In this document: piece by piece, positions 2,940 to 61,307 of the stretch | Numbering within the stretch: the first letter of the stretch is position 1 | How the letters are laid out: the number at the start of each line of letters is the position of its first letter | Virus record (IMG/VR): IMGVR_UViG_3300027917_000018 | Location: 64,001 to 128,000 of that record | Source of the DNA: a virus | Taxonomy: Duplodnaviria > Caudoviricetes | Strand: one strand, 5' to 3' | Length of the DNA: 64,000 nt | Notes under the pieces: generated by a model | What the model was told of the DNA's origin: nothing | Seen by the model: only the letters and a program-made list of their open reading frames with translations | The model's database searches: none | Translations under genes and position numbers: made by a program

Positions 2940-3095
2940 ATGCGACTCTACACGCTTCAAGTCAACAACGAGACCGTGATCCAGGTCGACGCGGAGCTTC
3001 CGAGCTGGTTGCCAAGAAGGCCCCGGCTCAACCTTCGGTGGCTTAGGAACCTGCTGGCGTCGTCTCTGCGTGAGCTGCTCTTGGATGCCGCGTAG
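2940..3095 (+). CDS. Small hypothetical protein (51 aa), not in ORF track
   Basis: ATG 2940 to TAG 3095; stop overlaps the GTAGTTA motif of the next gene. Confidence 0.4.
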   Translation: MRLYTLQVNNETVIQVDAELPSWLPRRPRLNLRWLRNLLASSLRELLLDAA

Positions 3096-3102
3096 TTAAG
3101 GC

Positions 3103-3474
3103 ATGAATCTGAAGCAGCTGGCTCAGCTGTTGATTGAGGGACCGAATGCTGCCGAGCAGGCTCCTGAAATCGACAAGAAGATCGCGGTTTTCCTCAACCG
3201 CGTGCTGCTGCGGCATTGGAATACGCCCAGTTTCCTCTCCTTCCTCAAAGACGTGGCGATGTTCCCGAAGGACGATGAAAGCGGCCAAGTCGTAATCCAA
3301 TTCGTTTACAATCGCCTGCCCGAGGAAGCGATCCCTTCCCTGGCCCGTTTGCTGGCTTCGCCTTCGGACCCCAAGTACTCGCGGTTTGTCGACAACGGCC
3401 AAGCCTATACCGGCGTTGAGCTGTGCGTTAAGCCGGATGACTTCGGCGGCGAGGAATACGACTACGCTTACTGA
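3103..3474 (+). CDS. Hypothetical protein with N-terminal LAQLLIEG peptide
   Basis: 123-aa ORF; GTAGTTA at 3092-3098. Confidence 0.7.
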   Translation: MNLKQLAQLLIEGPNAAEQAPEIDKKIAVFLNRVLLRHWNTPSFLSFLKDVAMFPKDDESGQVVIQFVYNRLPEEAIPSLARLLASPSDPKYSRFVDNGQAYTGVELCVKPDDFGGEEYDYAY

Positions 3475-17177: not shown

Positions 17178-18070
17178 AGGTCTTCGCTCAGTTCATTCCA
17201 TTGTTCGGACACCGCCTGGAGCTTTTTACGGGCCGCCTCTTCGGCCTCGTCGCGCTCCGCCCAAAGGTCAGCGTCCCGTACAGAGAACACGGCGTCGCGG
17301 ATCAGGTCGGCAATAACTTGAGGTTCGAGTGCGTCCAGCTCCCAGCTGTCGTTGCCGAATTGGGCAATGTAGGCGGCGGCCCGTGAATCCGTGATCTTGG
17401 CCGGATTGGGCGGCGGCTGGAACTGGTCGATCTGGTCCATGTTGAGCGCCAGCCGCTTGATTTCGATGTCGCGGCCCGCAAACTCGGAGAGCCGGTCCAC
17501 GATGTCGCGGGTCATGTCCTTGCCGGAGGGGTCGTGGTCGCCCAAATGGAACACGAGCGGCGTCTGCCCCTGCCGGGCAAACTTGGCCAGGCGCTGCGCG
17601 GCGCTCCACATCTCCGATTGGCTGGTGTAGCCCCGGCAGGAGAAGTAGGGCACGTCGAGGTCGTTGCACACGCCCTCGATGACACCCACCAGCGCATCCT
17701 TCTCGATCCAGACCTCGACGTGGTAGGGCTGGTCATTCCATTTGTCGAAGCGGAACTGGTTCGCGCAGGCCCGAATGATGTCCGAGGGCGATTCCCAGTG
17801 GGCTAGGCTGCGCAAGTTCCGGGTCCGGTCGACGATGGCCTCCCAGTCAATCAGCCCCGCCAACCGGGCATCGCTGATGATGTCGCCGAGGTTCTTGTAG
17901 TCCTTCTGCGTATTGGGGATCAGGTCGCGGCTGACGAACTGGTAGTAGAGCTGGCGCAGTGTCAGGGTGAATCCCTGCTGCGCGTATTCCGCGATGATCT
18001 GGTTCGCGGTCTCGATCAGCGCCTGGCGGGCCGCGCTGAACCTCTTCTCTCGGTAGCAAATCTTTGGCAT
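17174..18070 (-). CDS. wHTH-Toprim protein (Topo VI-A/JetD-like fold)
   Basis: TLRQLYYQ wHTH; VWIEKDAL, SCRGYTS, HLGDHDPSG Toprim motifs. Confidence 0.8.
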   Translation of the reverse strand: MPKICYREKRFSAARQALIETANQIIAEYAQQGFTLTLRQLYYQFVSRDLIPNTQKDYKNLGDIISDARLAGLIDWEAIVDRTRNLRSLAHWESPSDIIRACANQFRFDKWNDQPYHVEVWIEKDALVGVIEGVCNDLDVPYFSCRGYTSQSEMWSAAQRLAKFARQGQTPLVFHLGDHDPSGKDMTRDIVDRLSEFAGRDIEIKRLALNMDQIDQFQPPPNPAKITDSRAAAYIAQFGNDSWELDALEPQVIADLIRDAVFSVRDADLWAERDEAEEAARKKLQAVSEQWNELSEDL

Positions 18071-18117
18071 GGTACTATCCTTATACCCAAATCTCGGCAG
18101 TTTTTAACCCTTGGCCC

Positions 18118-18426
18118 TTAAGGTTGAGGAAGATTGCCGCTTCCAACGGTGTCGTCCTGAATGGGCTTGTCCGACTCGTCGCGCACTGTCCAGCCCGCCA
18201 GGGGCAGGAGCGATTCGGTGGATTCGTCGCCGGGGCCGGTGCGCCAGAGGATACAATGCTTTTTGTCGACGCGGTAGATGGTCAGCGACCTGGGTATAGC
18301 CCAGGTTCCGCCGTCGTTTATGCGCCCCAGGTGCGCGAGAAGCCACGTCAGCGCCGGGGCAATGTCCTCCCGGCGGGCAAGACTCAGCTGGCCCTTACGA
18401 AGGCGCTCTAAAGCTTGCTTATTCAT
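18118..18426 (-). CDS. Hypothetical protein
   Basis: ATG 18426 (MNKQ...) ATGA-coupled to upstream micro-ORF. Confidence 0.55.
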   Translation of the reverse strand: MNKQALERLRKGQLSLARREDIAPALTWLLAHLGRINDGGTWAIPRSLTIYRVDKKHCILWRTGPGDESTESLLPLAGWTVRDESDKPIQDDTVGSGNLPQP

Positions 18427-18515
18427 AGTAGCGTGCTGGTGAAAGCCCAAACCAGAGCAACAAGCGCCGCCACGAGCAAAATAACGGCGGCGCAGCCAAG
18501 GTCTTCGCGGCTCAT
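18423..18515 (-). CDS. 30-aa single-pass membrane microprotein, not in ORF track
   Basis: MSREDLGCAAVILLVAALVALVWAFTSTLL; ATGA overlaps at both ends. Confidence 0.6.
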   Translation of the reverse strand: MSREDLGCAAVILLVAALVALVWAFTSTLL

Positions 18516-19702
18516 AGGTCCCTCTGAGAACAGGTCATGTAGTGTCCGGCGCTGGGTTCCGCGCTGCATTCGGGGCACGCAACTGGCAACGTTGCCAGTT
18601 CCTCTTCCACCTTGTCGGGAATGTCGGCGATAGCGATTTCAGGATGCTGCATGGCGTAGGCAATCCACGGAGCGGCCTCGGCCATCGTCTTTCCACGGCG
18701 GATGGCTTCGTCCTGAAGTGCGTTCCACCGGTCGAGCTTGGACTGGAACTGGGGCTCGGCGAGCACTGGGTTGGCCTTGGCGATGGCCTCCTCGTCGACC
18801 GCCAGCTTGAGGATGCGGAAGTTGGCGGGGCGCTTCCAAAAGCCGAATAACGGATCGCCTTCCTTGGGCTCGACCGTGGCCTTGAATTCGACCGTGTCGC
18901 CGACCTTGAGAATGTCGGACACGTAGGCGTCGTGCCCAGGCTTCTGCCAGTCGTGGCCCCGCGAGATGTTCACGTCGTCAAAAACCGTGCGCTCCGGGCA
19001 GCTGCCCCACAGCTTCACACCGTTGCCGAGGTCAACCAGGACCTTGGCCGTGTAAGTCGTCAGGGCCGAATAGCGCGACCGCTCGCGCTCCTCCAGGCGA
19101 ATCTTGCGGACGATGCCACGGATGACCTGCCGCCCGGCCTTGGCGGTCCCGGTCGCCTTGGCCCGACGGTCAATGTCGTCCTGGCGAACCTTCTCCAGCA
19201 GCGCGAGCTGCTTCTCGGAGATGTTGCCGTACCGGCGCAGCTTCTCGCAGATGTCCCGCGAAATGCGCGGAGCGTTGGGGCGCTTGGACCACTGGATGAC
19301 GCCGATCGCGTCGGGATTGGCGGCGAGGAAATCAGCCTCGCGCTTGTCGCACGCGATGCGCTGTGCCAGGGCCACCGTCGCGCCCTTGATAATGTCGCTG
19401 TAGCCCGCGAGCGCCTTGACGGTCTTGGCGCAGTCGCGGCCAATCCAGTAACCGTTGCCGGTGGGCCTGTGGGTGACGGCGCAGGCGATCTTCAGGCCGT
19501 GCCCGCACAGGGCGCACCGATTGGCCTCCTCCTTGGGCGCATTGAACTTCTCCCAGTCGGCCTCGTTAAGGACCTCCATCTCGACCACTGGAAGCTGCCG
19601 TCCCGTCTCCTCGTCCTCGTAAACGTCGGTGATTGACGCCACCGCCGTTATCGAAAGCTCGTTGAGGGGCAGGCCCTTGATGCTGTCGGCGCGGGGTGTC
19701 AT
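18512..19702 (-). CDS. Hypothetical protein with Zn ribbons and OB-fold-like region
   Basis: Start at ATG 19702; CALC...C..H, GDTVEFKATVEP...GFWKRP, C-terminal CPEC. Confidence 0.65.
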   Translation of the reverse strand: MTPRADSIKGLPLNELSITAVASITDVYEDEETGRQLPVVEMEVLNEADWEKFNAPKEEANRCALCGHGLKIACAVTHRPTGNGYWIGRDCAKTVKALAGYSDIIKGATVALAQRIACDKREADFLAANPDAIGVIQWSKRPNAPRISRDICEKLRRYGNISEKQLALLEKVRQDDIDRRAKATGTAKAGRQVIRGIVRKIRLEERERSRYSALTTYTAKVLVDLGNGVKLWGSCPERTVFDDVNISRGHDWQKPGHDAYVSDILKVGDTVEFKATVEPKEGDPLFGFWKRPANFRILKLAVDEEAIAKANPVLAEPQFQSKLDRWNALQDEAIRRGKTMAEAAPWIAYAMQHPEIAIADIPDKVEEELATLPVACPECSAEPSAGHYMTCSQRDL

Positions 19703-19704
19703 GG

Positions 19705-20073
19705 CTATTTCCTTCCGGCAAGGGTTTCGATGGCGGCGACGGCGGCGGCCATCTCGCGGCTGCGAGCGGCGGCGTTTTCGGCCTCGATGGCGGCGACGAA
19801 CTGCCCCACGGTGCGGTGCTTGCCCGCTTCGGCGGCGAAGCGCTCGGCGCGCTGGCCGTGCGTCTCGTCCTTGCGCAGCGCAGACCACTTGCTGACGAGC
19901 TGAAGCTGGCGCTTGGACTCGGTCGGGTCGTTGCTACCGGCCACCAAAACGGTGTCGCTGTAGCGGTTGATGCGCAGCTCCACGGAGCCGCCGCTGGGGT
20001 ACTGAACCTTCACCACGAGGCGGTCGTAAGAATCCCGTCGGGTGACCTTGGTTTCGGTAATTCGCTTTGTCAT
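19705..20073 (-). CDS. Hypothetical early protein
   Basis: 122 aa; first gene behind the sigma70-like promoter at 20083-20111. Confidence 0.65.
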   Translation of the reverse strand: MTKRITETKVTRRDSYDRLVVKVQYPSGGSVELRINRYSDTVLVAGSNDPTESKRQLQLVSKWSALRKDETHGQRAERFAAEAGKHRTVGQFVAAIEAENAAARSREMAAAVAAIETLAGRK

Positions 20074-20082
20074 AGCACCACC

Positions 20083-20111
20083 AATATGGCAGCAGCCACG
20101 ACCCAGCGCAA
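20083..20111 (-). promoter_or_regulatory. Sigma70-like promoter
   Basis: TTGCGC-17 nt-(TG-c)CATATT, AT-rich upstream element, 9 nt before ATG. Confidence 0.6.
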
Positions 20112-20147
20112 GAACAAATTAAAGATTTTTGGATACGTCTAACTGGC

Positions 20148-22337
20148 TCATGTGAGCGTATCTACGCCCCACCAACCCGCCGGGCGAGCGGCTATGACCA
20201 TCCAGCCCGTTGCCGCTACTGAAGTCCAGTCTCGCAGGTCGTAGGACGCGTCGTTGAAAAGCGTGTATGGGAAGCCGTTTGGCCCCAAAAGGTCCCTGAG
20301 CTGCGTGTGCAATGCGACCGCCTCGTCCCTGAGCCCGGCACCGACCCAGGCGTGAACCACGCCCGCCGTGCCCTCAATCCAGAGGCCGCCGGATGCGCCC
20401 GGATACCCGTAGTCCGGGCTGTAGGGCGTGTAGCCAACGAAGGTGCCGGACTGGGTGCCGTAGTAGGTGCCGCTGAACTCGCCGACCGGGGCAAAACTGC
20501 CGAAAAACGTGCCGTTGCTGTAAATGCCTCGGGTTTGGTAGTCGGGAATGATGTCCAGGACCACGGTGCCGTGCGGAGCGCCCACGTCCCGGACCACGCT
20601 GGAGTACCAACTGGCCACGTCCAGGGCGTGCGCCGTGTCCGGGCTGCTGTTGTTGGTCATGCCCTGGTAGGCCCGTGGCGGGCTGTAGGTGCCTTGCCAG
20701 AAGGTGGTGTTGAGGACCTGGCCGATGCGCGTGCCGTAGTCGTGCCACGCCTGGCTGCCGGTCATGGCGTAGTATTCCTTGGCAAACCAATAGGCGTCGG
20801 TATTGTGCTCGGTCGAGACCCACGGAACCTGGTAGGTGCCGTTGAATTCCCACACCGGAAGCTGATAGCGGCCCCTGCCGCCCCGGAAGGTGGAGACCTG
20901 CTTGTCATCGCTATCGACCCAGTACTCCGTGACCATCGTTCCGGCGAACTCGCCCAGGACGTGCTCGATCGAGCTTTGCAGGTCGGGCGGCACGGTCGGG
21001 GCCTTGTTCAGGTACCAGGCCAGGGCCGAGGCGCACCAGAAGTTGGCCCCGGTTCGGTAATACGGATCGGGAGGAACGGCGGAGACCGTGTTTACCGAGA
21101 AAGCCCACTGGCGATCCAGCGGGGTCCACGCGGCGACGAGGCCCCGCGACCAGCGCTCGGCGGTCTCCCAGTCCTCCATGCCCACGGCGGCCACAATTGA
21201 GAGAGCCTGATCGTAGGTGTAGGTGCGCTTGTAGAGGTAGGGCCACGACGGATCGCTCTGGTCCATGCCGTAGGAGCGGAGCAAGCCCTGACCCCAGTAA
21301 TGCTCGGCGATGAGGTTCTCCTCGGGAACCTTGACCAGTTTCAGGGTCTTGTAGCCAGGGGTGCCGAACGGGATTGAAAACCCGCCCAGCACCGCCCCGG
21401 ATTGCCCGACCGTGGTGCCATACGCGTTGGCCACCAAATCTGCGCGCTTGATGCCTGAATCGGTCTCCGCCACGAATCCGTAAACGAACGGCGCATAGGT
21501 GTGGCCGAAGATGCCACCGTCGCTTTTGCGGATGAGCTTGGCGATCTTGGTGCCCGTAAACGCTTGGGCCGCCGCCCAAGTGCCGTCGCCTTGGATCGTG
21601 CCGGTGGACTGGTAGTAATCCTGGTCGGTCTTGCTAAAGACCTGAATTTCATAGTCAGCGTACTGGCCGGGGTCCAGGCCCTCCACGCGGCCCACGATGG
21701 GGCCGAAGCTGCCTGAATACGGGTAGGGCTCGCTGAAAAGCACGGCTCCCGTAAACAGATTCGAGCGGGAAATCAGGTAGGGGATGTCGCTGACCGCGTA
21801 GATGTCCACGCGGAGGTCAGTGCCTGTGAAGTCGGACGGAAAGGCGGTGGCGCGACCAGCGGCACTTCCAGTATAGCCGTAGTCGTAGGTGCCCGTCTGG
21901 CTGTAGTCGAAGGTGCCGTCCGGGTTCGTTCCGTAGAAAACCAGTTCAGCCCGGTTGGGCGTGGCGCTCCCGACGAAGTAATCAACGTCGCTGGTGTTGT
22001 ATCCCCGGATCGAGTACTCGGTGTAAGCGTCGGTGCCGATGCCGGTGACGATGCCCGACACTTCGCCAACGTAGCTGGGCGCGTACGATCCTGTAAACGA
22101 AAGGCCGCTGGTGCCGTTGTAGAAGGTCGGCGGGTTCTCCAGCGTTTTGAGGACGGCGAAGGTTTCGTTTACGAAGTCGGCATCAAAATAGGCAAGCGGT
22201 GGCGTGGGAGGCGTGGGCGGAGCTGGATTGACCGGCCCGCTGCCATCGCTGCGGCCCGTGCGGCTGGTGTTCCAATAGGACGGAGCTGGCCATTTGTCCC
22301 CGGTCCTATCGAACGGGCGGATGACAAACGGAGGCAT
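20148..22337 (-). CDS. Six-hairpin (alpha/alpha)6 glycosidase-like protein with beta-rich N-terminal half
   Basis: YTYDQAL, WVSTEHN, LWIEGTAG, SVAATGW motifs; aromatic-rich. Confidence 0.65.
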   Translation of the reverse strand: MPPFVIRPFDRTGDKWPAPSYWNTSRTGRSDGSGPVNPAPPTPPTPPLAYFDADFVNETFAVLKTLENPPTFYNGTSGLSFTGSYAPSYVGEVSGIVTGIGTDAYTEYSIRGYNTSDVDYFVGSATPNRAELVFYGTNPDGTFDYSQTGTYDYGYTGSAAGRATAFPSDFTGTDLRVDIYAVSDIPYLISRSNLFTGAVLFSEPYPYSGSFGPIVGRVEGLDPGQYADYEIQVFSKTDQDYYQSTGTIQGDGTWAAAQAFTGTKIAKLIRKSDGGIFGHTYAPFVYGFVAETDSGIKRADLVANAYGTTVGQSGAVLGGFSIPFGTPGYKTLKLVKVPEENLIAEHYWGQGLLRSYGMDQSDPSWPYLYKRTYTYDQALSIVAAVGMEDWETAERWSRGLVAAWTPLDRQWAFSVNTVSAVPPDPYYRTGANFWCASALAWYLNKAPTVPPDLQSSIEHVLGEFAGTMVTEYWVDSDDKQVSTFRGGRGRYQLPVWEFNGTYQVPWVSTEHNTDAYWFAKEYYAMTGSQAWHDYGTRIGQVLNTTFWQGTYSPPRAYQGMTNNSSPDTAHALDVASWYSSVVRDVGAPHGTVVLDIIPDYQTRGIYSNGTFFGSFAPVGEFSGTYYGTQSGTFVGYTPYSPDYGYPGASGGLWIEGTAGVVHAWVGAGLRDEAVALHTQLRDLLGPNGFPYTLFNDASYDLRDWTSVAATGWMVIAARPAGWWGVDTLT

Positions 22338-23769: not shown

Positions 23770-24633
23770 ATGGCAGACAAACCAAATCGCCCCGTGCGCG
23801 ACTGGCTCAAGAAGGTGGAGACCACCGGGCCGCTCACCACGCGATTACGGGCCGCCAAAATCAAGGACCCGACGCTGTACGTGGGCGCGGCAATCCGTGA
23901 AAACGGCAGGTACCCGCACTTCGGGGCTTTTGAGCCACAGGTAGAAGTCACCAGTGAGACCCAGGAGTCGGGCGACGAGTTCTATGACGCGATTCACAGC
24001 ACCCTGGTTGAGTGGCTGGCCGAAGAGGTTCAAAGCTTAAACCGCGAGTTTTTCAAAATTCTGGAGACCGAGTACGACTACCAGGTGAGCGATGAGGGCG
24101 TGGCCGACAGCCTGGACGCAAACGAAATGCACTTTGATGCTGATGGCCAGCCCGCCGACCTGAGCCACTACTACCACATCGATCAGTTGCCCAAACCGGT
24201 GGCGGTCAAGGTCATCGGCCTGTACTCGCGGATGTTTGGTAAAACGGAAGAGGAGGTTGCCGAGGCGCTCCTGGCCAACAAGATCAAGTTCGACAAGCGG
24301 GGCAACCGCGTGGACACCGACGAGTTCAAGCGCGTCAGCGAGCTGCCGCCCGAAGTTCGCAAAAAGGTCCTCGAAAAGCATCGTTACTGGAACGTTGAGG
24401 ACAACGACTGGGCGCACTGGCTTCAGGAAAACTTCGCCGAGGAACGCTTGCAGGGCTGGCGGAACCCACAGTTTGAGTGGGAACTTTACGGATCGGTCCA
24501 CGCTGCCCGAATTCTGACGGACAACGTCGACCTGGACACTTTCATTCCCGAGGCGGAAAAGCACCGGCAGAGCCAGTCAAGAAAGCAAACGAGCGAGGCC
24601 CGGCAGGTGGCACAAAGGGTTCTCGTAACATGA
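23770..24633 (+). CDS. Hypothetical protein with internal ~40-aa repeat
   Basis: Start re-chosen at ATG 23770 after GTAGTTA (23758-23764); EYDYQVSDE...ANEMHFD block. Confidence 0.7.
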   Translation: MADKPNRPVRDWLKKVETTGPLTTRLRAAKIKDPTLYVGAAIRENGRYPHFGAFEPQVEVTSETQESGDEFYDAIHSTLVEWLAEEVQSLNREFFKILETEYDYQVSDEGVADSLDANEMHFDADGQPADLSHYYHIDQLPKPVAVKVIGLYSRMFGKTEEEVAEALLANKIKFDKRGNRVDTDEFKRVSELPPEVRKKVLEKHRYWNVEDNDWAHWLQENFAEERLQGWRNPQFEWELYGSVHAARILTDNVDLDTFIPEAEKHRQSQSRKQTSEARQVAQRVLVT

Positions 24634-25073: not shown

Positions 25074-27103
25074 TGAAGAAGGTTACGGAAGCGGACGGCG
25101 GAGCTGAGCGCGCCCGGCGCGACTTCAAAGCCATGATTCAGGCCCAGCGCGACGCTGAGGCCGCCAAGGCGCGTGCCCGCGAGGCGGAACGGGCCACGGC
25201 CCGCCACCAAAAGGTCTTGGATAACGGGCCGCCGCTGCGGGACGGCGAGGAGGATAACCCGAAGATGATGTGGTTTCGGGAGAACCTGGAATGGGAGCCG
25301 CACCCGGAACTGTGGTGCCCGCCGAGTACTGGCTACAGCGACGGCAGCGGCAGCTTCGTCGAGCGCTCCAACGCCAAGTGGTTCACCGAAAACATGGGTG
25401 AAATCTTCAGCCAGGTCGGCGGCGGCTACGGCACGGTATGGACCGGCATTACCGATGAGGACCGGTGGGTCATCACCGACGAGCAGTTTGAGCAGCTCAA
25501 GGATGTGGTCGAGGGCCTGGAGGGCTACCCCATCATCGACGAGCAGCTCTACAGCGAAATGGAGTACGACGCCTACAACGAGTACTACCAGGGCGAAGGG
25601 CGCAAGGACCTGCGCCAGGCGCTCCTGCAAAGGTTCTCCGGCGACCCCGAGGCGCAGATGGCCGTGCGCTTCAGCTCGGTCGACGCGTTCGACCACCTGG
25701 CCTGGAATAGCGACATCAGCCAGGCTTTTGAGACAGAAACGGGCGGCGGCGTTTACTTTCGGGCCAACGCGGCTGCCGAAGGCTTCAACCGGGACGAGGT
25801 CGTGGACCTGGTCAGCGAGGAGGAGGCCCGCACGGCAATGGCCAGCGCGTGGGCCGAGCGTATTCAGCCTGGGTGGATCGACACGCTGGCTGAGGTTCGA
25901 CGCGACGATGAACGGCTGGTCAACACGGTCGCGGAGCTGGAGCCCTCGTCAGGCTTCAATTTGTTTACGAAATTGATGGTTAAGGTTGGAGCCGACTGGG
26001 AATGGGATCAGCGGGAGGATGAGGCCAGGGACGCGTTCGACATCGATAGTGATTCTATGAAGGAAATGGCGCAGGCACTGGAGCCGGGCATGCTGAGCGG
26101 TCTTCGCCCCGAGGACCCGCGCCAGCTGCGCTTGGCCATCGAGCAGATTCTCAATGGCGAGCCGACCTTCACGCTCTTCGAGGGGTTTAAGGAGAAGAAG
26201 CAGCTTTTCGTCAGCCAAGGCGCGAGCCCCGAGGAAGTCGACGCACTCCTTACCCAGTTCAAGCGCCTGAAGCAACGCGGCCTGCTCCAGGGTGAGGAGG
26301 CCGACATCGACCGGTACACTGACTTGGATTCGCTGCGGCAGGCGGTCGAAGCCGCGTCGCAGAAACAGAGCAAAACGGGGCGCAAGCGGGAGGTTCGGCA
26401 CAAAGAGGCTATCGTGCTCCGGGATGACGAGGAGATGCAGATTGTCGTTCCGAAAACCTGGGCCGCCGCGAAAGCCTACGGCAAGGGGACCAAGTGGTGC
26501 ATCAGCATGAAGGAGTACCCGAGCCACTGGACCGAGTACCACAAGAAGCTCGCCAAGCATTACATGATCTGGAACAAGCGGCTGCCCGCGCCCACGATGG
26601 GCACCCACGGCGAGCCGATCGGCGGCAGCCCGCTCTACAAGATTGCCGTTACGATTTACCCGGACGGCCATTCATCGATCTACAATGCGCAGGACCAGGC
26701 CATCACCGAGCAGGACCTGAAACGAGCCACCGGTTTCAGCCTTTCGGATTTCAAGTCTTGGGAGGAGCACGAGCTTGCGGGCCGCGACCTGTTCCGCCTG
26801 ATGGGCGCGAAGAACGTGCCGTTCCGCGAGCGTGTGGAGCGGATCGGGGCCGAGGGCTGGGCCGAGATGGGCAAGAATGTGGCCATGCGCGAACTGTGGT
26901 CCAGTGACCAGGCCGAGGACCTGAAGGGCAAAAGCAAAGAGGAGGTCGACGCGGCCTGGGACGAGTTCTGGCAGAAGGCCCGGCAGGAGCTGCTGGACTA
27001 CCCGGACGACGAGGACTACGAAAAGAGCCTGAAGTTCTACGTCGAGTCGCTGCGGCTGCCGCCCGGCAAACAGCTGGCACTGCTGGAGGACGCCGATGAA
27101 TAG
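25067..27103 (+). CDS. Multi-domain protein (YPIIDE domain plus GTKWC-motif domain)
   Basis: LEGYPIIDEQLYSEME; IVVPKTWAAAKAYGKGTKWCISM; linkers with LFE/LLE. Confidence 0.7.
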   Translation: MLMKKVTEADGGAERARRDFKAMIQAQRDAEAAKARAREAERATARHQKVLDNGPPLRDGEEDNPKMMWFRENLEWEPHPELWCPPSTGYSDGSGSFVERSNAKWFTENMGEIFSQVGGGYGTVWTGITDEDRWVITDEQFEQLKDVVEGLEGYPIIDEQLYSEMEYDAYNEYYQGEGRKDLRQALLQRFSGDPEAQMAVRFSSVDAFDHLAWNSDISQAFETETGGGVYFRANAAAEGFNRDEVVDLVSEEEARTAMASAWAERIQPGWIDTLAEVRRDDERLVNTVAELEPSSGFNLFTKLMVKVGADWEWDQREDEARDAFDIDSDSMKEMAQALEPGMLSGLRPEDPRQLRLAIEQILNGEPTFTLFEGFKEKKQLFVSQGASPEEVDALLTQFKRLKQRGLLQGEEADIDRYTDLDSLRQAVEAASQKQSKTGRKREVRHKEAIVLRDDEEMQIVVPKTWAAAKAYGKGTKWCISMKEYPSHWTEYHKKLAKHYMIWNKRLPAPTMGTHGEPIGGSPLYKIAVTIYPDGHSSIYNAQDQAITEQDLKRATGFSLSDFKSWEEHELAGRDLFRLMGAKNVPFRERVERIGAEGWAEMGKNVAMRELWSSDQAEDLKGKSKEEVDAAWDEFWQKARQELLDYPDDEDYEKSLKFYVESLRLPPGKQLALLEDADE

Positions 27104-27803
27104 CCAGGCCCTCCGTCTCGCCCGATGCCTGCTGGAGCAGAAGTTCAGCTACAGCACAACGCAGATCAATCTGCCGTCGCCGCTCGACGATTTCGTCGTG
27201 AAGTGGGGCCGGATGCACGTGCAGGACCAGGACCTCTACTACTTTGACGATGGCGGCGGTGGCCGTGAAACCGAACCTCATATCACGGTGCTTTACGGGC
27301 TGCTGGAACCCGAGCCCAGCGATGCGCTCCGGCAAATCGTCCGCCGGACTTCGCCCTTCTGGATTCGGTTGGGGCCGACGAGCCTCTTCGAGAACGAGGA
27401 CTTTGACGTGCTCAAGTTTTCCGTGGTGAGCCCCGACTTGGAGGCGCTCAGCGGTGCGATCCGCCAGGCGTGCCCAAACGAGAACAAGTACCCGAAGTAC
27501 ATCCCGCACGCCACAATAGCCTACGTGAAAAAGGGCCGCGCCAAGCACTTGAACGGGCTGTACCCGTTCGAGGGTTATCCGCCCGTTCCCAGCGAGTTCG
27601 AGGCTAACACGTTGATTTTCAGCGCTGCCGGGGATGACGACGACCCGAAGCGCCGAACAGTGAGGCTTCCATTCAACCGGACGAGGAACGAAAGTCTCAA
27701 TCAGGACAGCCCATTCCAGGGTTTATGGTTCCCGGCAGACGCGTCCGAGCTGGCCAGCAAGATTCTCGGACTCAAGAAACAAGACCCAAAGCAGGTTGTT
27801 TAG
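27096..27803 (+). CDS. 2H phosphoesterase (T4 gp57B/Acb1-like)
   Basis: Two H-x-T motifs: EPHITVLYG and PHATIAYVKKG. Confidence 0.85.
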   Translation: MNSQALRLARCLLEQKFSYSTTQINLPSPLDDFVVKWGRMHVQDQDLYYFDDGGGGRETEPHITVLYGLLEPEPSDALRQIVRRTSPFWIRLGPTSLFENEDFDVLKFSVVSPDLEALSGAIRQACPNENKYPKYIPHATIAYVKKGRAKHLNGLYPFEGYPPVPSEFEANTLIFSAAGDDDDPKRRTVRLPFNRTRNESLNQDSPFQGLWFPADASELASKILGLKKQDPKQVV

Positions 27804-54753: not shown

Positions 54754-54902
54754 GCTGGCGAGACTGGCACTTGAGTACGCTCACTGCATTGCCCGCAAGA
54801 ACTACTGGGCGCAGCGGGCGGAAAACGTCGCCATCCGCAAGACGCTCCTGAGTAATCCCACGATGACCCTCCAGGAGCTTCGCCCGCGTAGTTAAAGGCA
54901 AG

Positions 54903-55934
54903 ATGCCAAAGTATGCAGTCGTGCCAAGCCACCTGATGGGCGGCCCGGAGAATCCCGGCATGCGCTGGGATGCCGCCTATTTGATGATCCTGGCCGACCT
55001 GCTCAATCCCCAGCTGTCGATCGAGGAGGCTACCGATCTTTTGGAGAAGCACCTGGAGGAGAAGAAAATCCGGGTAGGCGACCTGTGGCGGCTTTCCGGG
55101 ACCCCATCCGCCGTCAAGGAGCTGGGCAAGAAGTTTGGTCTCGAAGTTACGGATCGCGTTCGCCCGCGATTCACGGCGGTCTTCATGGAGCTGCTCCGGC
55201 GGCACAAGGACCGGCTCCGGCACCAGGCCAAGAGCATCGAGCAGCAACTGGACGACCTTGACCAGCGTTTCCAGGCTGAAGCCCTCGCCGCCAGCGTGCT
55301 CGAAGGCTACAGGGAGACGGATGATTACAGCGCCGAGTACGCCAAGTTCAACGATCTATCCAAATGGCCAATTTCTGCAAAAAGAGGCGCTTTCTTGGAC
55401 TATGGACTGGCCAAGGAATGGGCTCGGTATTTGGCAAACGGAACCTACACACTTGATTGGTGGGGCACGCGGCTGGAGGACATTCCTTGGGCTGCCGAAA
55501 GCATAGCCAGGTTTTTTGGGTCCAAATGGGAACGGAAAGAAGACAGGGAAGCCGTTCAAACTCTCAATAATGCAGCGGCTCAAGTCATTGACGTTGAGAC
55601 GATCCACGAGCCACTAGCGCTCCCGCCTCCGCGCACGACCGGCGAATCCTTGGCCGCCAGCGTGCTCGAAGGCGTCGTATTGGAGGGTGAGGGCATCGAG
55701 GCCCGCCTCAAGGCTGCCGCCAAGAAGATCAAGCATTCCGGGGATTACGGGATGCTTTACTACCATCCCGAGAAGCACGAGGTCCACTGGACGGCGGCGG
55801 ATTCGGACGGTGAGCCGGAGCACACGGGCGGCCCCGAAATCATCAAGCTGCTGAAGCTGGATGGCATCAAGCACGTCGAGGTCGGTGACGAGTGGTCCCC
55901 GGACGAGGACGAAGGCTGGAAACGCCTGATATGA
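54903..55934 (+). CDS. Three-module protein with repeated AASVLEG linkers
   Basis: GTAGTTA at 54888-54894; EALAASVLEG and ESLAASVLEG. Confidence 0.75.
   Translation: MPKYAVVPSHLMGGPENPGMRWDAAYLMILADLLNPQLSIEEATDLLEKHLEEKKIRVGDLWRLSGTPSAVKELGKKFGLEVTDRVRPRFTAVFMELLRRHKDRLRHQAKSIEQQLDDLDQRFQAEALAASVLEGYRETDDYSAEYAKFNDLSKWPISAKRGAFLDYGLAKEWARYLANGTYTLDWWGTRLEDIPWAAESIARFFGSKWERKEDREAVQTLNNAAAQVIDVETIHEPLALPPPRTTGESLAASVLEGVVLEGEGIEARLKAAAKKIKHSGDYGMLYYHPEKHEVHWTAADSDGEPEHTGGPEIIKLLKLDGIKHVEVGDEWSPDEDEGWKRLI
55287..55673 (+). repeat. Exact 21-bp direct repeat flanking a low-GC module
   Basis: GCCGCCAGCGTGCTCGAAGGC at 55287-55307 and 55653-55673. Confidence 0.95.
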
Positions 55935-57124
55935 CGCCCAATCAGCAAGATCGCGCTCTGAAGAATGCCAGCCGGTGGCTGCACAAGTACCGGCGGGCCG
56001 CCCGGCAGACCCTTGGCCCGGAGCGCGCCAAGTATCAGCAAGCCGCCCGGAATTATCGTGGATGGATTTCAACGCTGCGCCGGGACATTGCGAACCGGCC
56101 CACAGAAGAAGGAATTGAGATGAGCAAACTGCACGAAGCTTACGGCTGGGTGGTCAGCTATGACGCCCCAGGTGGCACGAAATGGTACTGGGGCCAGAAA
56201 GGCTGGGTTCAGGACCGGCATCAGGCCAAAGCCTCGATGAAGAAGGCCGATATGATCAGCCTGGCGCAAAGCTTGGTGCGCAACGCCCCGGCCTTGCAGG
56301 ACCGCATCGGCGTTCAGGTGAACGCACCGAAGTTGGAGGGCATTCCTGCAAACACGGGCGAAGATGAAGGGTTCCGTCGGATGAAGCGCCTGGCCGCCAG
56401 ACCGGACAGCGAGCTTGGACCAAGCGCACGCCGCGCCAAAGCGCGGTTCCTGGCGAACAACAAGAAGGCCGATGCCATGTTCAAATGGGCTAAGGGCGTC
56501 AAGGAGGACGTGCCTTTTGCCCAGCCTGCCGGTGGGCCGGACGACCCGTGGCGGCAAAGCATAGTGAAGGTGCCTTACGACCAGTTCGATTTCAGCGGCA
56601 AGCGCGGCAAAGAAGACGTGGAGGACGAGGACGACGAGGAAAAAGAGACCGAGAAGCCCAAGGCCAAAAGCCGTTTTGACCTCAAGTTCGATGAGTCCGA
56701 GACGCTCGCCTCCAGGGTCCTGGAGACTGGCGAACGCAGCAAGCGCGACATCTACAATGAGCTGGAGCGCTTGTGGGCGGAGCGCGACGAGATGCAGCGG
56801 CTCCAGCGGTTCATGGCCAAGTGGGCGCTCATCAAGGACGAGCTGGGCATCAGCGACGCGGACATCCAGGCCCTGGACATCGAAACCAAGGGCGACGGCA
56901 GCAAATGGGCGGTGGGCATCTACCTCAAGGAGCCGCGCTATGACCTGAAGATGCAGCGGGCCGACGCCCGCCGTAAACGTTTGGATCGTGAGTGGGCCGA
57001 GAAGAATCCTCATTTGCACCGCAGTCAGAAGCCGTCGTGGTCGCCGGGTCACCGGCATTCCAGCTCCAGCTACATCGCTTTGGAGCAGCCGCTTTATCTG
57101 CCCAAAGCCTACTTCAAGAAATGA
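55931..57124 (+). CDS. Multi-module hypothetical protein
   Basis: ATG 55931; linkers LHE, KLEG, ETLASRVLETG. Confidence 0.7.
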   Translation: MTPNQQDRALKNASRWLHKYRRAARQTLGPERAKYQQAARNYRGWISTLRRDIANRPTEEGIEMSKLHEAYGWVVSYDAPGGTKWYWGQKGWVQDRHQAKASMKKADMISLAQSLVRNAPALQDRIGVQVNAPKLEGIPANTGEDEGFRRMKRLAARPDSELGPSARRAKARFLANNKKADAMFKWAKGVKEDVPFAQPAGGPDDPWRQSIVKVPYDQFDFSGKRGKEDVEDEDDEEKETEKPKAKSRFDLKFDESETLASRVLETGERSKRDIYNELERLWAERDEMQRLQRFMAKWALIKDELGISDADIQALDIETKGDGSKWAVGIYLKEPRYDLKMQRADARRKRLDREWAEKNPHLHRSQKPSWSPGHRHSSSSYIALEQPLYLPKAYFKK

Positions 57125-59262
57125 AGGTTGCCGGGCACGAGGTTGAGACCGTCACCCATCCGCATCACGGCGGCTGGATGGCGATAGCCTACCTCGAAGG
57201 CGGCAAGCAAGTGGCCGGAGCGCCGTGCGACACCAAAGAGCTGGCCGAGAAAGACCTTCACGACAAGCTCTACGACATGCTGCGGCCCAAGTTCGATCCG
57301 AAGAAAACCTACGAGCAATCCGAGGAATACCAGCAGCGCGTGATTGCGAGAGCAGAAACGTTTACGCCTTTCAAGCGAGCGATGTGGGACCTCGATGTGG
57401 CACTGACTGACCGCGCCTTCGAGGCCGCCAGCCAGTACCACCACTACCCGGATACGCCGGATAAGTGGTTTGCCCAGGGCGGCGAATGGTACCTGAGCGA
57501 TGGAGGTTACAGCCGCGTCGTTTACAGCGAGGAGACCGGGAGGCTGTTCCTGACCAGCAACAGCCGCGACCAGGTCAAGGCGCGGTGGGACGAGGCGCTG
57601 CCCCAGCGGGCCAAGGCCGAGGCCATCATTAACGACTACATGCGCCAGGAGCTGGGCGAGGCCAAGACCAAGTTTGCCGCCGTGGTGCTGCTGAAGGACA
57701 AGGACGACCCCAAGGCTCTGATCATCAAGCGGGATGACGAGCCCGAGGCGGGCAAGTGGGCCTGTCCTGGTGGCCACTGCGATCCGGGCGAGGACGACGA
57801 GGCGGCAGCCCACCGGGAGCTGAAGGAGGAGACGCGCTTGTCCGCCGAGAGCCTGGTTCCGCTGGGCAAGACCGCCGATGGCACGGCCATGTTCTGCGGC
57901 TGGGCCAAGACCGAGGACGCCAAAGGCACAGCCACCGACGACGCCGAGGGCCTCAAGTGGGTCTCGGTCGACAACCTGCCGGAGCTGGCATTTGGCAACG
58001 AAAAGCATATCCGCCAGGCCGTTCGCAAGCTCAAGGCCAAGGAGGAGGCACTCCAGCTCGCCCGCGAGGTTCTTAATGAGGTCACGCCTCGGGAGCTTTT
58101 AAGTCGGCACCCCGGAGAGGCAGAGCCGTACGTTTTCTTTCAGCCGTCGGGCATAGAATCGTTCAAGCTACCCCTCCAAAAAGTGGCTTCGACTTACGGT
58201 TGGGATTACACACAGGCTGAGCTTAGCCAGGAACAGCTAAACTGGCTCGACCTCCACGGTGAGTCTGTTTTTATAGCCTTGAACGACTACGGAGCAATCA
58301 ATAGCGACATTCTGGACGCAAACGACGAAACTGCGGGTACTTTCAGCGTCGTTGGTAACCTCGATAGCGCTACAGAAGTCAACAGTCTCGAACGTCTCAC
58401 GCCGCCGTGGCGCACGGAAGGCAAGATCGGCAGTCCGCGCCAGAACCGTTGGAACCCGATGGGGCTTCACCGCAATCACCGGGGCCAGCTCGTGGACAAG
58501 TACGGGCGCGTCATGGACGTGGACTGGGATGAGTTTGAGCGCAAGCGCCTGAAGCCCGGCGAGGAATTGAAGAGCCCGAAGGTGCTCAATCCGCTTCACC
58601 AGGCGGCCAAGGCCACCGGCCAGGTCGAGGCGCGGGAGCCAGAAAAACCGGGAAAGCCGATCAGTCCCCGCGAGCTGCTCAGGAAGTACCCGCGTGAACA
58701 GCCCTATCTGCTCAAGGGCGAGATTGAAGACACCCAGCGCCTGGTCAAGGTCCTGGACCGGTTCGACAACGAGGAGCACATCTACGATGACGGCTACGGG
58801 CCGCTGTGGGTCATGCGGGAAAGCCTGGGCATCACCGGCATTGCCCGAGCCCGTTCGTGGGAGGATGCCTATAGCATCGCCGAGGACGAGTTCTTCCATG
58901 AGGCGGATGAAACGGTCGAAGAGCTTCAGAAGGAGTACGGCTTTCGGCGCGAGCACGTCAAGATCGTGCGCGATCCGAAAACCGGCGAGGAGCGAGATGT
59001 TCAGCAGGGCGACTATCCGTTTGCGGAAACCGGCGTCGAGTTCGTGCGTTGGGAGACTAGGGAAACCCCTGACCCGGACGGCTGGATTGACAACGAGCTG
59101 TTCCAGGAGGCGTACGGCTTCAGGCCAAACGGCCCCAATGCCCGCGACACGCACCAGCACGGTATTTACCAAAAGGACCTCAACGGCGAGGTCTTGGACG
59201 AGCTGACGCCAGCCCTGGCCGAAGAGCTTCAGTTGAGAATCTACGTGGAGGACGAAGAATGA
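57121..59262 (+). CDS. Multi-module protein containing a Nudix hydrolase domain
   Basis: PGGHCDPGEDDEAAAHRELKEETRL Nudix box; linkers LAREVLNEVTPRELL and ISPRELL. Confidence 0.8.
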   Translation: MKVAGHEVETVTHPHHGGWMAIAYLEGGKQVAGAPCDTKELAEKDLHDKLYDMLRPKFDPKKTYEQSEEYQQRVIARAETFTPFKRAMWDLDVALTDRAFEAASQYHHYPDTPDKWFAQGGEWYLSDGGYSRVVYSEETGRLFLTSNSRDQVKARWDEALPQRAKAEAIINDYMRQELGEAKTKFAAVVLLKDKDDPKALIIKRDDEPEAGKWACPGGHCDPGEDDEAAAHRELKEETRLSAESLVPLGKTADGTAMFCGWAKTEDAKGTATDDAEGLKWVSVDNLPELAFGNEKHIRQAVRKLKAKEEALQLAREVLNEVTPRELLSRHPGEAEPYVFFQPSGIESFKLPLQKVASTYGWDYTQAELSQEQLNWLDLHGESVFIALNDYGAINSDILDANDETAGTFSVVGNLDSATEVNSLERLTPPWRTEGKIGSPRQNRWNPMGLHRNHRGQLVDKYGRVMDVDWDEFERKRLKPGEELKSPKVLNPLHQAAKATGQVEAREPEKPGKPISPRELLRKYPREQPYLLKGEIEDTQRLVKVLDRFDNEEHIYDDGYGPLWVMRESLGITGIARARSWEDAYSIAEDEFFHEADETVEELQKEYGFRREHVKIVRDPKTGEERDVQQGDYPFAETGVEFVRWETRETPDPDGWIDNELFQEAYGFRPNGPNARDTHQHGIYQKDLNGEVLDELTPALAEELQLRIYVEDEE

Positions 59263-59705
59263 GCGACGTTGTCAGGCGCATGTTAGGTGAGAGCGTGTGG
59301 GACCCGCCCAAGGGCATGGTTCAGTGTCCGGCTTGCGAGGCAATGGGCTACGTCGATGAGGAAGGCAATCCCCACGGTCCCGACACGCCCGGCGCGGAGC
59401 CTTGCTACTTGTGCCACGGCAAGCGCTTTGTGAAACCCGAGGTTGCCAAGGACCATGAGGGCAGGACCAAGGCCAAGATGCGGGAGTACGGCATGGAGTC
59501 TCGGGATGAAGTGCGAGCCGTTATCGAGGACACGCGGCCCGTGAAGTTTTACCGGTGCCCGCACTGCAACGAGGAGATTTTCGAGAAGCACGACTACGTT
59601 GACGAGTCCGGCGTGACCCGCCACCGGGGCTGTGGCGGAGCGTTTAAGTGGCCACCGCCGAGCCCGGAACAAAAGGCGTGGCTGGACAAACTACTGAGCA
59701 GGTAA
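59259..59705 (+). CDS. Protein with two Zn-finger modules
   Basis: CPACEAMG...CYLCHG and CPHC...HRGCG. Confidence 0.65.
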   Translation: MSDVVRRMLGESVWDPPKGMVQCPACEAMGYVDEEGNPHGPDTPGAEPCYLCHGKRFVKPEVAKDHEGRTKAKMREYGMESRDEVRAVIEDTRPVKFYRCPHCNEEIFEKHDYVDESGVTRHRGCGGAFKWPPPSPEQKAWLDKLLSR

Positions 59706-59708
59706 GCT

Positions 59709-60278
59709 ATGCCAATTGTCAAAAACTTCACCCGGCAGGCCAGCAGTGCTGGCGGCGACCTCGTGCCCGTGCTCAAGAGCCTGGGCGGCGACCAGTTTGA
59801 TGAGCGCACGATGGAGCTGCGCAATTTCTTTGGCATCAAACTGACGACCACGGACGTTAATCGCAGCGGCGCGTCTACTCCGGTGGACGACCAGTTCACG
59901 GTGGCGCTCACGCAAGGTGTTCAGGTCATGCTGGAATATCGAATTGCCTGGACGCTTCCGGCGTCTCCGACTGCTACAGGCATTGAGTTTGGCTGGAATT
60001 TTCCGCTCTCTCCAGCCTTCACGGACGGCTACCAAATCAACTGGTATGAGTCGATCGCCGCAGGTGCCAGCACTATTGTAGGTCTTGTTTCCAATGGCGA
60101 GGGAGCGCCTGTGCCCATCTTTGCCAACACCACTGCCATTCGGAACAACGGCAGGTGGCACGTCGAGGGCTTCTTTGTTGTGACACCCACGTCGAGCGGC
60201 AACGCCGAATTCTTTTGGGGCAATTGCACGGATGTTACCCGCAGCGCGGGCAGCCACGTGCGCGTCACACCTGTATGA
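59709..60278 (+). CDS. Beta-rich putative virion protein
   Basis: T/G/V-rich beta-sandwich-like composition. Confidence 0.6.
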   Translation: MPIVKNFTRQASSAGGDLVPVLKSLGGDQFDERTMELRNFFGIKLTTTDVNRSGASTPVDDQFTVALTQGVQVMLEYRIAWTLPASPTATGIEFGWNFPLSPAFTDGYQINWYESIAAGASTIVGLVSNGEGAPVPIFANTTAIRNNGRWHVEGFFVVTPTSSGNAEFFWGNCTDVTRSAGSHVRVTPV

Positions 60279-60610
60279 GTCGAGCCCGCGCCATCTTGGA
60301 AGCGGAGACGCCCAAGAGCGTTATGGCGGAGCTGCCATCGGATGAAATTGAAATCCGTTGTCACCTTCAGGACAATCGGCTTCACAGCGGGCGGGAGGTT
60401 TCCGATCCTGGCAGTCACTTTGACCGCGTGGTTGTTTCGGGCCGCGATTGGCCAAAGGTCGAGCAGCTTGGGCTTTGGCTGGAGCCCGACCCGGACGAGC
60501 GTGGCGTTTACTGGTGCGGCGACCTTTACGTCACCGAGCTGCAAGGTGCGCTTGACGATGCCGGGATCAAGCATGACTGGTGGGAAAGCGATCCCCTGGA
60601 GGACGAATGA
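60275..60610 (+). CDS. Small acidic protein with MSRARAILEAE leader (copy 1)
   Basis: ATG 60275 overlapping upstream stop. Confidence 0.65.
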   Translation: MSRARAILEAETPKSVMAELPSDEIEIRCHLQDNRLHSGREVSDPGSHFDRVVVSGRDWPKVEQLGLWLEPDPDERGVYWCGDLYVTELQGALDDAGIKHDWWESDPLEDE

Positions 60611-60945
60611 GCCGCGCCCGAGCCATCCTGGAGGCTGAGCCTCGCGACCTGATGCGCCGCGCCGCCCAGCGTGAGAAGGCCGAGGCAGGCAAGTGGCCGG
60701 TTCAACCCGGCGACAAGGGCTTCCTTTTCATTCTCGGCGAGAATCCGAACCTTTCTTTGAACGTCTACGCGCCGACCACCGCCCTGGCCGTCGAACGCTG
60801 CAATCAGGTTCTTAAGGAGCTGTTCCCCGACGGCTTGATGCACCGGAATGACCGCTGGGACACGACCTTTCATTTTGATTGGACGAAATTGGAGGCCAGG
60901 GACTCGGACATCTACGATGAGTGGGCGCTGGATGCTGAGCGGTGA
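60607..60945 (+). CDS. Small protein with MSRARAILEAE leader (copy 2)
   Basis: ATG 60607 overlapping upstream stop. Confidence 0.65.
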   Translation: MSRARAILEAEPRDLMRRAAQREKAEAGKWPVQPGDKGFLFILGENPNLSLNVYAPTTALAVERCNQVLKELFPDGLMHRNDRWDTTFHFDWTKLEARDSDIYDEWALDAER

Positions 60946-60981
60946 TTGACGGACAGCTACTAAAGTGAAACGTTTTAGCAG

Positions 60982-61143
60982 ATGGTTAGTATCAAACAGC
61001 GCGCCCTGGTGGCGTTGGTGCTGTTCGCCCGCCGCGAGAAGGCGCGGGCGCTTCGGGCCAAACATGCTTTGGCTCAGCAGGTAACGCGTGCATACGCCAG
61101 AAAAAAGATCAGGAAGTCATGGTACGTCCGTATCCGTGTTTGA
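60982..61143 (+). CDS. Small basic protein (53 aa), not in ORF track
   Basis: MVSIKQRALVALVLFARREK...; fills gap between coupled genes. Confidence 0.4.
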   Translation: MVSIKQRALVALVLFARREKARALRAKHALAQQVTRAYARKKIRKSWYVRIRV

Positions 61144-61151
61144 GAAAGCGG

Positions 61152-61307
61152 ATGAAGCTGCGGCAGCTTGCCATTCTGCGTCAGCAGCGGGCGGAGACGG
61201 CTATCCTCGAAAATCTTCCCAACTTCACCCGTGAAGAGATTGAAAGCCTGCGCGGTTTCTGTGTCCCTGTGGAAAAGCTGCGCAAGCTGTTGCTGGAGCA
61301 TTCTTGA
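61152..61307 (+). CDS. Small helical protein
   Basis: MKLRQLAIL...AETAILENL. Confidence 0.45.
   Translation: MKLRQLAILRQQRAETAILENLPNFTREEIESLRGFCVPVEKLRKLLLEHS

Follow-up and report, generated by a model that had tools for sequence, protein, structure and literature searches.

In bacteriophage T4, the prohead protease gp21 cleaves behind the Glu of L/I-x-E, as was first observed at a Glu-Ala bond, while the first 10 residues of the internal protein IPIII make up the capsid-targeting sequence, within which residues for targeting and for processing have been mapped (PMC9026906). The internal proteins of T-even phages are diverse and have only the targeting sequence in common (PMC3012670). For the polyvalent proteins of phages (Iyer et al. 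2017), packaging and injection have been predicted, and their domains include, or are associated with, InPase, 2H, and Nudix (PMC5512222). In the jumbo heads of phiKZ, 201phi2-1, and SPN3US, many proteins, including those described as ejection or inner-body proteins, are processed behind Glu residues by a diverged homologue of gp21. Paralogues can have the same N-terminus, as in SPN3US gp53 and gp54 (PMC5694885). Phage P1 loads large anti-defence proteins (DarA, DarB, Hdf, and DdrA/B) during head assembly and injects them with its DNA. Here, we describe a peptide element that recurs, as an N-terminal leader and as an internal linker, in unrelated proteins encoded by an uncultivated phage. It was first noticed in a gene cluster at positions 54903-61307 of a 64,000-nucleotide stretch (hereafter the window), which comprises bases 64001-128000 of a viral contig of 202,975 bp (IMG/VR record IMGVR_UViG_3300027917_000018).

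On balance, the element probably serves, as leader and linker, a capsid-cargo system of the T4 style that operates on an unusual scale and in which the same peptide also joins the units of polyproteins. This reading is partly supported, by indirect evidence, and packaging, cleavage, and injection are predicted. The T4 capsid-targeting sequence, which is carried by IPI-IPIII and Alt and removed by gp21, likewise is a short N-terminal leader on otherwise unrelated, fast-evolving proteins, with a terminal [LI]-x-E some 8-10 residues behind Met1; the hypervariable cargo described here also matches the T-even internal proteins in this respect (PMC3012670). Each of the two phages has a protease of the gp21 family and a capsid protein of the gp23 type that carries a long propeptide. 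To judge from the motif class that they share with virion genes, the leader genes may also be co-regulated with these, as in T4. Unlike in T4, which has a handful of such proteins, at least 21 genes with approximately 30-40 modules are involved; the peptide is also found as an internal linker in polyproteins of up to 713 amino acids (aa; approximately 1500 aa in a relative); a conserved tail follows the cut site; many of the cargo proteins are acidic, whereas the T4 internal proteins are basic; and the leader differs between phages whose capsid proteins are 70-84% identical. No cargo protein matched T4 internal proteins in PHROG or Pfam searches, and the likeness is functional and positional only, with no sequence homology.

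There is also a resemblance to polyvalent proteins. Unrelated conflict-type domains (Nudix, 2H, and InPase) are strung together, 2-15 per polypeptide in that class and at least five, including Nudix, in the largest protein of the cluster (A3), with InPase in a polyprotein of a sister lineage (L130); they are encoded with late or virion genes, and packaging, injection, and division into units are predicted for them. In polyvalent proteins, the division is ascribed to an embedded MPTase-type peptidase, but family scans of the seven principal cluster proteins (A1-A7), a 703-aa polyprotein encoded outside the window, two polyproteins of the related genome G001, and the L130 polyprotein found no peptidase domain; instead, the repeated linker fits the head protease and also heads single-domain genes. 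In the phiKZ/SPN3US type, the sites are A/S/G-x-E and propeptides often exceed 100 residues, and no repeated inter-domain linkers have been described, whereas here the P3 position is I, V, or L and leaders are approximately 10-22 residues long. P1 loading follows an ordered protein hierarchy, with no common leader or repeated linker. The principle is known from T4 and from polyvalent proteins; what is new is their combination, the scale, the motif tail, and the lineage-specific concerted evolution of the leaders.

The first-pass annotation of the window had proposed a shared motif, A-x-x-[VIL]-L-E, from eight peptides between 54903 and 61307, all of which are present in the coding frames that it named. 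In the 251 called proteins of the genome, with shuffles as background, this motif was observed 27 times against 6.5 ± 2.6, and LA-x-x-[VIL]-L-E 12 times against an expected 0.45. The enrichment therefore stands, but the motif as defined covers only the first half of a longer element. The real element has two parts and approximately 22 residues, (M)SRARA-[IV]-[LI]-E-A-E-[ST]-P-[RK]-x-[FLIV]-[LIM]-K-[KR], with a subtype LA-x-x-V-L-E-G-(x)-E-S-P-[RK]. A core spanning both halves, [ILVM]-x-[ED]-x(1-4)-[STNDE]-[PA]-[RK]-x-hydrophobic-hydrophobic, was found 22 times (1.3 ± 1.2 in shuffles), and the generic pattern is not enriched once the family's own copies are removed. An iterated hidden Markov model (HMM) run on the six-frame translation detected 20 copies at E ≤ 0.002, all between 118 and 200 kb of the genome, and about 10 weaker ones. 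Thirteen copies are located at a start codon and the others inside long open reading frames (ORFs), at a spacing of approximately 80-250 residues; the leader-bearing genes lie in about seven late-type operons. Five further peptides had been assigned to the motif, at 3103, 22345 (minus strand), 23770, 25067, and 27096. They are present, but the HMM misses them and they are indistinguishable from chance; those attributed to 23770 and 25067 in fact lie at 24595 and 27068, both C-terminal. The observation itself is real, highly non-random, and genome-wide.

In the aligned two-part copies, the nearly invariant core has I/V/L, a variable position, Glu (in rare cases Asp), and Ala (at times Gly); one or two further residues separate these from [ST]-P-[RK]-x-hydrophobic-hydrophobic. 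Nearly all N-terminal copies place I/V-L/I-E at residues 7-9, followed by Ala. In internal copies, the 'SRARA' helix has decayed and the core and tail are kept, as in VAE↓AVDPRSLL, VKE↓AVSPRELL, VVE↓AVNPREFF, LVE↓AVSPRALL, and LAE↓AAETPRSVL (arrows mark the proposed cut).

The cluster lies on the plus strand, and most of its genes are linked by overlapping stop and start codons. A1 (54903-55934; 343 aa) has three modules, no Met1 leader, and two linkers, EALAASVLE↓G (aa 126-135; 55278-55307; HMM score, 21.5 bits; E = 5e-5) and ESLAASVLE↓GVVLE↓G (aa 248-260; 55644-55682; 17.5 bits). A2 (55931-57124; 397 aa), whose start overlaps the A1 stop (ATGA), has two modules and the linker ETLASRVLE↓TGERSKRDIY (aa 257-275; 56699-56755; 24.0 bits; E = 8e-6). 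The linkers of A1 and A2 belong to the LA-x-x-VLE↓G subtype with a weak tail. A3 (57121-59262; 713 aa) contains at least five modules, namely aa 1-65, aa 68-185, a Nudix hydrolase domain (57676-58005), aa 435-512, and aa 533-713. The Nudix assignment in the first-pass annotation was confirmed (PF00293, E = 2.5e-17). Directly 3' of this domain is the linker EEALQLAREVLNE↓VTPRELLSRHP (aa 309-332; 58045-58116), with the core pattern LNE↓VTPRELL and an HMM score of only 5.8 bits (scored at 58054), and a half linker consisting of the tail alone, ISPRELLRKYP (aa 514-524; 58660-58692), lies just ahead of the last module. A4 (59259-59705; 148 aa) consists of two zinc-ribbon modules; it begins at Met1 with MSDVVRRMLGES, which is leader-like (MSDVVRRMLGE↓S), and has an internal linker-like peptide, EVRAVIE↓DTRPV, at 59508. 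A6 (60275-60610; 111 aa, acidic) and A7 (60607-60945; 112 aa) carry the leaders MSRARAILE↓AETPKSVM (60275-60340; 33.9 bits; E = 6e-9) and MSRARAILE↓AEPRDLM (60607-60669; 29.0 bits), respectively; no homologue of A6 was found in four of five relatives. A5 (59709-60278; 189 aa) has no leader of any kind. A1, A2, and A5 have no Pfam or PHROG family, and a search of the ESM Atlas with A1 gave no usable match, the Atlas model of the protein being poor. A small ORF at 61119-61307 contains RAETAILE↓NL at 61188, but both gene and motif are uncertain, with a weak coding score and no HMM detection.

Conservation of the element acts on the peptide. Where two of the 13 N-terminal copies have the same residue, they also use the same codon in 44% of pairs, compared with the 39% that codon usage alone predicts, and such randomized synonymous sites indicate selection at the peptide level rather than a DNA repeat. 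The leaders of A6 and A7 differ by seven synonymous and no non-synonymous changes. The exception is the pair of LAASVLEG copies in A1, which share 21 identical bases and may represent a recent duplication. The sequences behind the 13 N-terminal leaders belong to no common family. When the leader DNA was searched as an exact degenerate pattern, no match was found in IMG/VR; the same pattern gave nine matches in metagenomes, three of them in true relatives (L127, L128, and L130) and six by chance in bacterial genes.

Homology searches place the linkers at real domain boundaries. In an exhaustive HMMER search, separate small proteins matched residues 68-185, approximately 177-317 (Nudix), 435-512, and 533-713 of A3, and residues 1-65 matched the start of a G001 protein. 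Many stand-alone homologues of the last A3 module begin, at their own residues 2-10, at A3 positions 533-535, just behind the tail-only linker at 514-524. In the 703-aa polyprotein, a DUF6166 domain is located exactly between two linkers. The close metagenomic relatives L128 and L130 have one module in common and differ in the upstream modules, with the junction exactly at a linker. L130 (8956-10761, minus strand) encodes a polyprotein of approximately 600 aa with four linkers, ILE or xxE before ↓AEDPK-x-FF, and an InPase domain (PF18823, E = 5.9e-47).

Most cargo modules have no known family. Outside the window, 2H/CPD-like, phosphoribosyltransferase-like, and DUF6166 domains were identified. 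The 2H phosphoesterase named in the first-pass annotation corresponds to the gene at 27096-27803 of the window (PF13563, E = 5.7e-13), directly 5' of the gene for a 1762-aa baseplate protein; its product begins with MNSQALRLARCLLE↓Q, a leader-like but unproven N-terminus. Several leader proteins are strongly acidic, with net charges of -15 in 111 aa (60275-60610), -48 in 264 aa (genome positions 175001-175795), and -24 in 143 aa (genome positions 182454-182885), and are reminiscent of DNA-mimic anti-restriction proteins. The last A3 module (58717-59259) represents a widespread unnamed family (YDDGYGPLW ... EDEFFPEA ... GFRPNGPN ... HGIY-KDLNG) that occurs as stand-alone proteins of 140-260 aa in many metagenomes; 33 representatives matched A3 at E ≤ 1e-30, mostly over this module.

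The genome is that of a distant, uncultivated phage of the T4 superfamily, 203 kb in size; the contig (approximately 60% G+C) is linear according to IMG/VR and 89% complete according to CheckV. T4-type virion genes include those for the portal, tail fibres, and baseplate in the window and those for the tail sheath, baseplate hub, and baseplate wedge outside it. A blastn comparison of the cluster region with isolated phages yielded no nucleotide match, and the capsid protein is less than 29% identical to that of any isolated phage. There are 62 related loci in IMG/VR, with capsid proteins 65-84% identical. The cluster DNA is nearly identical in marine-sediment contigs from runs of two studies, and the near-identical contigs in the run of the second study show that the region is not an assembly artefact. 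This second-study run (X2) has an in-frame 3-nt deletion at 56653-56656, in an acidic stretch of A2, and several strain variants occur in A2 and A3; the reading frames remain open. The 'Moraphage' lineage (PMC12619734) is a different, Bacteroidota-associated clade and was set aside as irrelevant here.

A prohead protease of the gp21 family (Peptidase S77) was identified by matches to PF03420 (E = 1.3e-21) and to T4 gp21 (PDB 5JBL, E = 3.3e-10). In the comparison with 5JBL, the His of LEHP and the Ser of SSRG, which we take to be the catalytic residues of gp21-type proteases, align with the gp21 motifs. The protease and a scaffold-like region are encoded in a single ORF of 554 aa (genome positions 17334-18998; L118:17334-18998), in contrast to T4, which splits them into genes 21 and 22; the protease domain takes up residues 1 to about 215, and the scaffold-like part is approximately 350 aa long, charged, and coiled-coil-like. 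Its net charge is -19 in this genome and +1 to +13 in all 40 relatives examined. The gp23-type capsid protein (PF07068, E = 6.7e-28) is encoded at approximately 19041-20498 of the genome (L118/L119), and the true start of its gene lies approximately 58-72 codons upstream of the first ATG-based call. The capsid propeptide, of approximately 72 aa, is kept in relatives and ends in A-I-M-L-E↓N in 56 of 60 sequences and in V-I-A-E↓S in the other four; its distance to the conserved QPM motif equals that of the L-T-E↓A site of T4 gp23. In about 39 of 40 relatives, the scaffold has [LIV]-x-E-[SA] just before a conserved C-terminal tail, and two small head-module proteins encoded 5' of the protease, in the position of T4 gp67/gp68, begin with MNKSAIVAKLLGE↓AE and MNSLVARMTGIKE↓N. 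The specificity deduced for the protease from the structural proteins is therefore the one that the leaders satisfy.

Four related whole genomes (G001, G003, G004, and G005) were fetched for comparison with the present one (G000). The G000 leader HMM found no match of 12 bits or more in them, and each has a leader of its own: M-x-A-R-x-x-I-D-E in G005, with I-D-E at residues 7-9; (M)K-P-x-x-L-V-E-x-L-L-x-E in G004, with L-V-E at residues 6-8; L-V-E-K-L-L-G-E in G003; and H-L-L-E-D-D-x-x-D-F-D-L-K-D-L in G001, where at least 25 copies occur, many of them within polyproteins of 1145 and 1509 aa, the latter with a Nudix domain. The sister metagenomic lineage L130 uses ILE↓AEDPK-x-FFKR throughout. 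N-terminal hydrophobic-L-E motifs are two- to four-fold over-represented in all five genomes. Sequence comparison further indicates that homologous cargo bears the leader of its own genome. A G000 module with LARAVLE↓DGESPKRVL corresponds to one with QLVESVE↓DEDDIKDIL in G001; the last module of the 703-aa polyprotein, behind LAE↓AAETPRSVL, corresponds to a G001 gene starting with MAKEIIQHLLE↓DDDESWKDL; and the second half of A4, with EVRAVIE↓DTRPV, corresponds to a G004 gene starting with MKPIQLVEALLG↓DTQPV. All copies in one genome thus change together, as would be expected if all of them fit one common partner. Cargo turnover is rapid: homologues in the four relatives exist for only 4 of the 21 leader genes but for 121 of the 230 other genes (p = 0.005). 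The basic leader tail occurs only in the G000 lineage, and no other lineage has a scaffold of net acidic charge; this apparent match of charges is a single evolutionary contrast and is a lead rather than a test.

Two classes of motif were found 10-14 nt ahead of start codons. TAGTTA (variants TAATTAA and CAGTTAC) precedes the leader operons and virion genes, namely those for the portal, capsid protein, tail sheath, baseplate hub, tail fibres, and the 1762-aa baseplate protein, as well as a head-core gene, whereas GTTCTT precedes genes for an exonuclease, a Holliday-junction resolvase, and other non-virion proteins. The first-pass annotation had reported the motif GTAGTTA both before gene runs with the peptide and before portal and baseplate genes, and it is indeed present, 4-10 nt ahead of start codons, at 3092, 4067, 7070, 22628 (minus strand), 23758, 27822, 54888, and 61867, the copy at 54888-54894 (plus strand) lying ahead of the first cluster gene. 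TAGTTA or TAATTAA stands at the head of operons A (54888), B1, B2 (on both strands), D, E, and F. The GTTCTT class includes no true leader gene, a single regular-expression match there (32209) being due to chance. Automatic operon calls placed 10 leader genes in TAGTTA units and 1 in a GTTCTT unit, an underpowered comparison (Fisher's test, p = 0.17), and manual inspection gave seven leader operons of the TAGTTA type and none of the GTTCTT type. The association of operon and motif is suggestive rather than conclusive. The closeness of the motif to the ATG would imply very short or no mRNA leaders, or else a combined stop and restart signal, the latter option arising because the motif includes TAG and TAA.

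In the capsid-cargo reading, the amphipathic first half and the tail of the element would dock each protein or polyprotein onto the scaffolding core during prohead formation. Once activated, the protease would cut after the Glu of [IVL]-x-E↓A, removing N-terminal propeptides of 8-10 residues and splitting the polyproteins into single modules (Nudix, zinc ribbons, and many of no known kind), which would stay in the head until they exit together with the DNA when a cell is infected. Mature modules would retain the tail A-E-[ST]-P-R-x-F-L-K-K. The head protease is the prime suspect for the cutting enzyme because a gp21-type protease is encoded, the capsid and scaffold sites are conserved, and the I-L-E of the leader lies at residues 7-9. 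In T4, an Asp in place of the P1 Glu prevents processing yet leaves targeting intact. A more specific form of this proposal may be offered tentatively, namely that the element is a genome-specific address label plus cut site, co-evolving with the scaffolding core, on about 40 freely shuffled, injected effector modules in an uncultivated T4-like jumbo clade, loaded either singly or within polyproteins that would be cut in the head. The tails SPR-x-FLKK in G000, EDPK-x-FFKR in the L130 lineage, and DDFDLKDL in G001 are in keeping with such a co-evolving dock, as is the pairing of a basic tail with an acidic scaffold in G000.

Several points weigh against the capsid-cargo reading. The phage is uncultivated and known only from marine-sediment metagenomes, and [ILV]-x-E is a short and common pattern. 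The best conserved part of the internal copies lies behind the proposed cut, whereas the T4 targeting sequence is wholly removed; A1, A2, and A3 have no Met1 leader, and A5 has none at all. At the operon level, the promoter association reaches only about p = 0.07 (seven operons), cluster C has neither a recognizable late-type motif nor GTTCTT, and the role of TAGTTA as a late promoter, like the timing of either class, is inferred. An AlphaFold2 model of A7 without alignment was unusable (mean predicted local distance difference test score, 46), its leader being helical without confidence, and a complex prediction for the 554-aa protease-scaffold protein and A6 scored 0.00, which is no answer and counts neither way.

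The alternative that survives best is that the peptide docks its proteins to some other partner, such as a phage chaperone, a host hub, a tail export or ejection device, or a compartment, with the capsid uninvolved and cleavage incidental or absent. The internal copies are, as just noted, best conserved in the tail ([ST]-P-R-x-F-L-K-K in G000 and D-F-D-L-K-D-L in G001), as in a short linear binding motif; the baseplate wedge gene has one leader gene immediately 5' of it; and the connection with the head is indirect. Nevertheless, we regard this alternative as rather unlikely: [IVL]-x-E-Ala persists in copies whose upstream helix is decayed, a gp21-type protease and matching conserved sites in capsid and scaffold are present, the N-terminal position 8-10 residues from Met1 mirrors that of the T4 targeting sequence, and a tag for docking alone would be superfluous in front of each module of a single polypeptide.

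It is improbable that the long ORFs are polyproteins cut in the cytoplasm, by the prohead protease or another one, to yield enzymes for late use in the producing cell rather than for packaging. Linkers at true domain boundaries and a site that fits [ILV]-x-E↓A agree with such processing, and packaging is a prediction, but gp21-type proteases act inside proheads (PMC9026906), and scans of cargo proteins revealed no other peptidase domain. Moreover, single-module genes have the leader at Met1, where the removal of nine residues would be without obvious use if there were no targeting. Finally, it is highly improbable that the element has no part in signalling and is simply a first helix or linker conserved among paralogues that expanded recently, or a DNA recombination cassette, since the 21 bases shared by the LAASVLEG pair, the modules shuffled at linkers between L128 and L130, and the habit of T4-type phages of shuffling genes at conserved gene-start sequences are outweighed by synonymous sites that are random across the 13 leaders (on which the DNA-repeat or cassette version was rejected as largely refuted), by unrelated post-leader sequences, and by the genome-specific leaders on homologous cargo in relatives, which require selection on all copies in each genome.

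If the capsid-cargo reading is true, a phage clade tags every protein that it injects in a recognizable manner, and approximately 7% of this genome (at least 4,500 codons, mostly without family) could be read as a catalogue of first-strike effectors, the class to which proteins of T4 and P1 with anti-restriction and other anti-defence activities belong. It would also unite the T4 capsid-targeting sequence with the polyvalent proteins, two ideas so far kept apart, the module-releasing enzyme being the head protease instead of an embedded peptidase. The lineage-specific leaders would then constitute a natural experiment in the co-evolution of a targeting code and its receptor, and they point to short tags with which foreign proteins might be brought into capsids, a use to which the T4 sequence is already put. 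In metagenomic phages, the leader would provide a sequence handle by which pre-packaged anti-defence proteins could be found.

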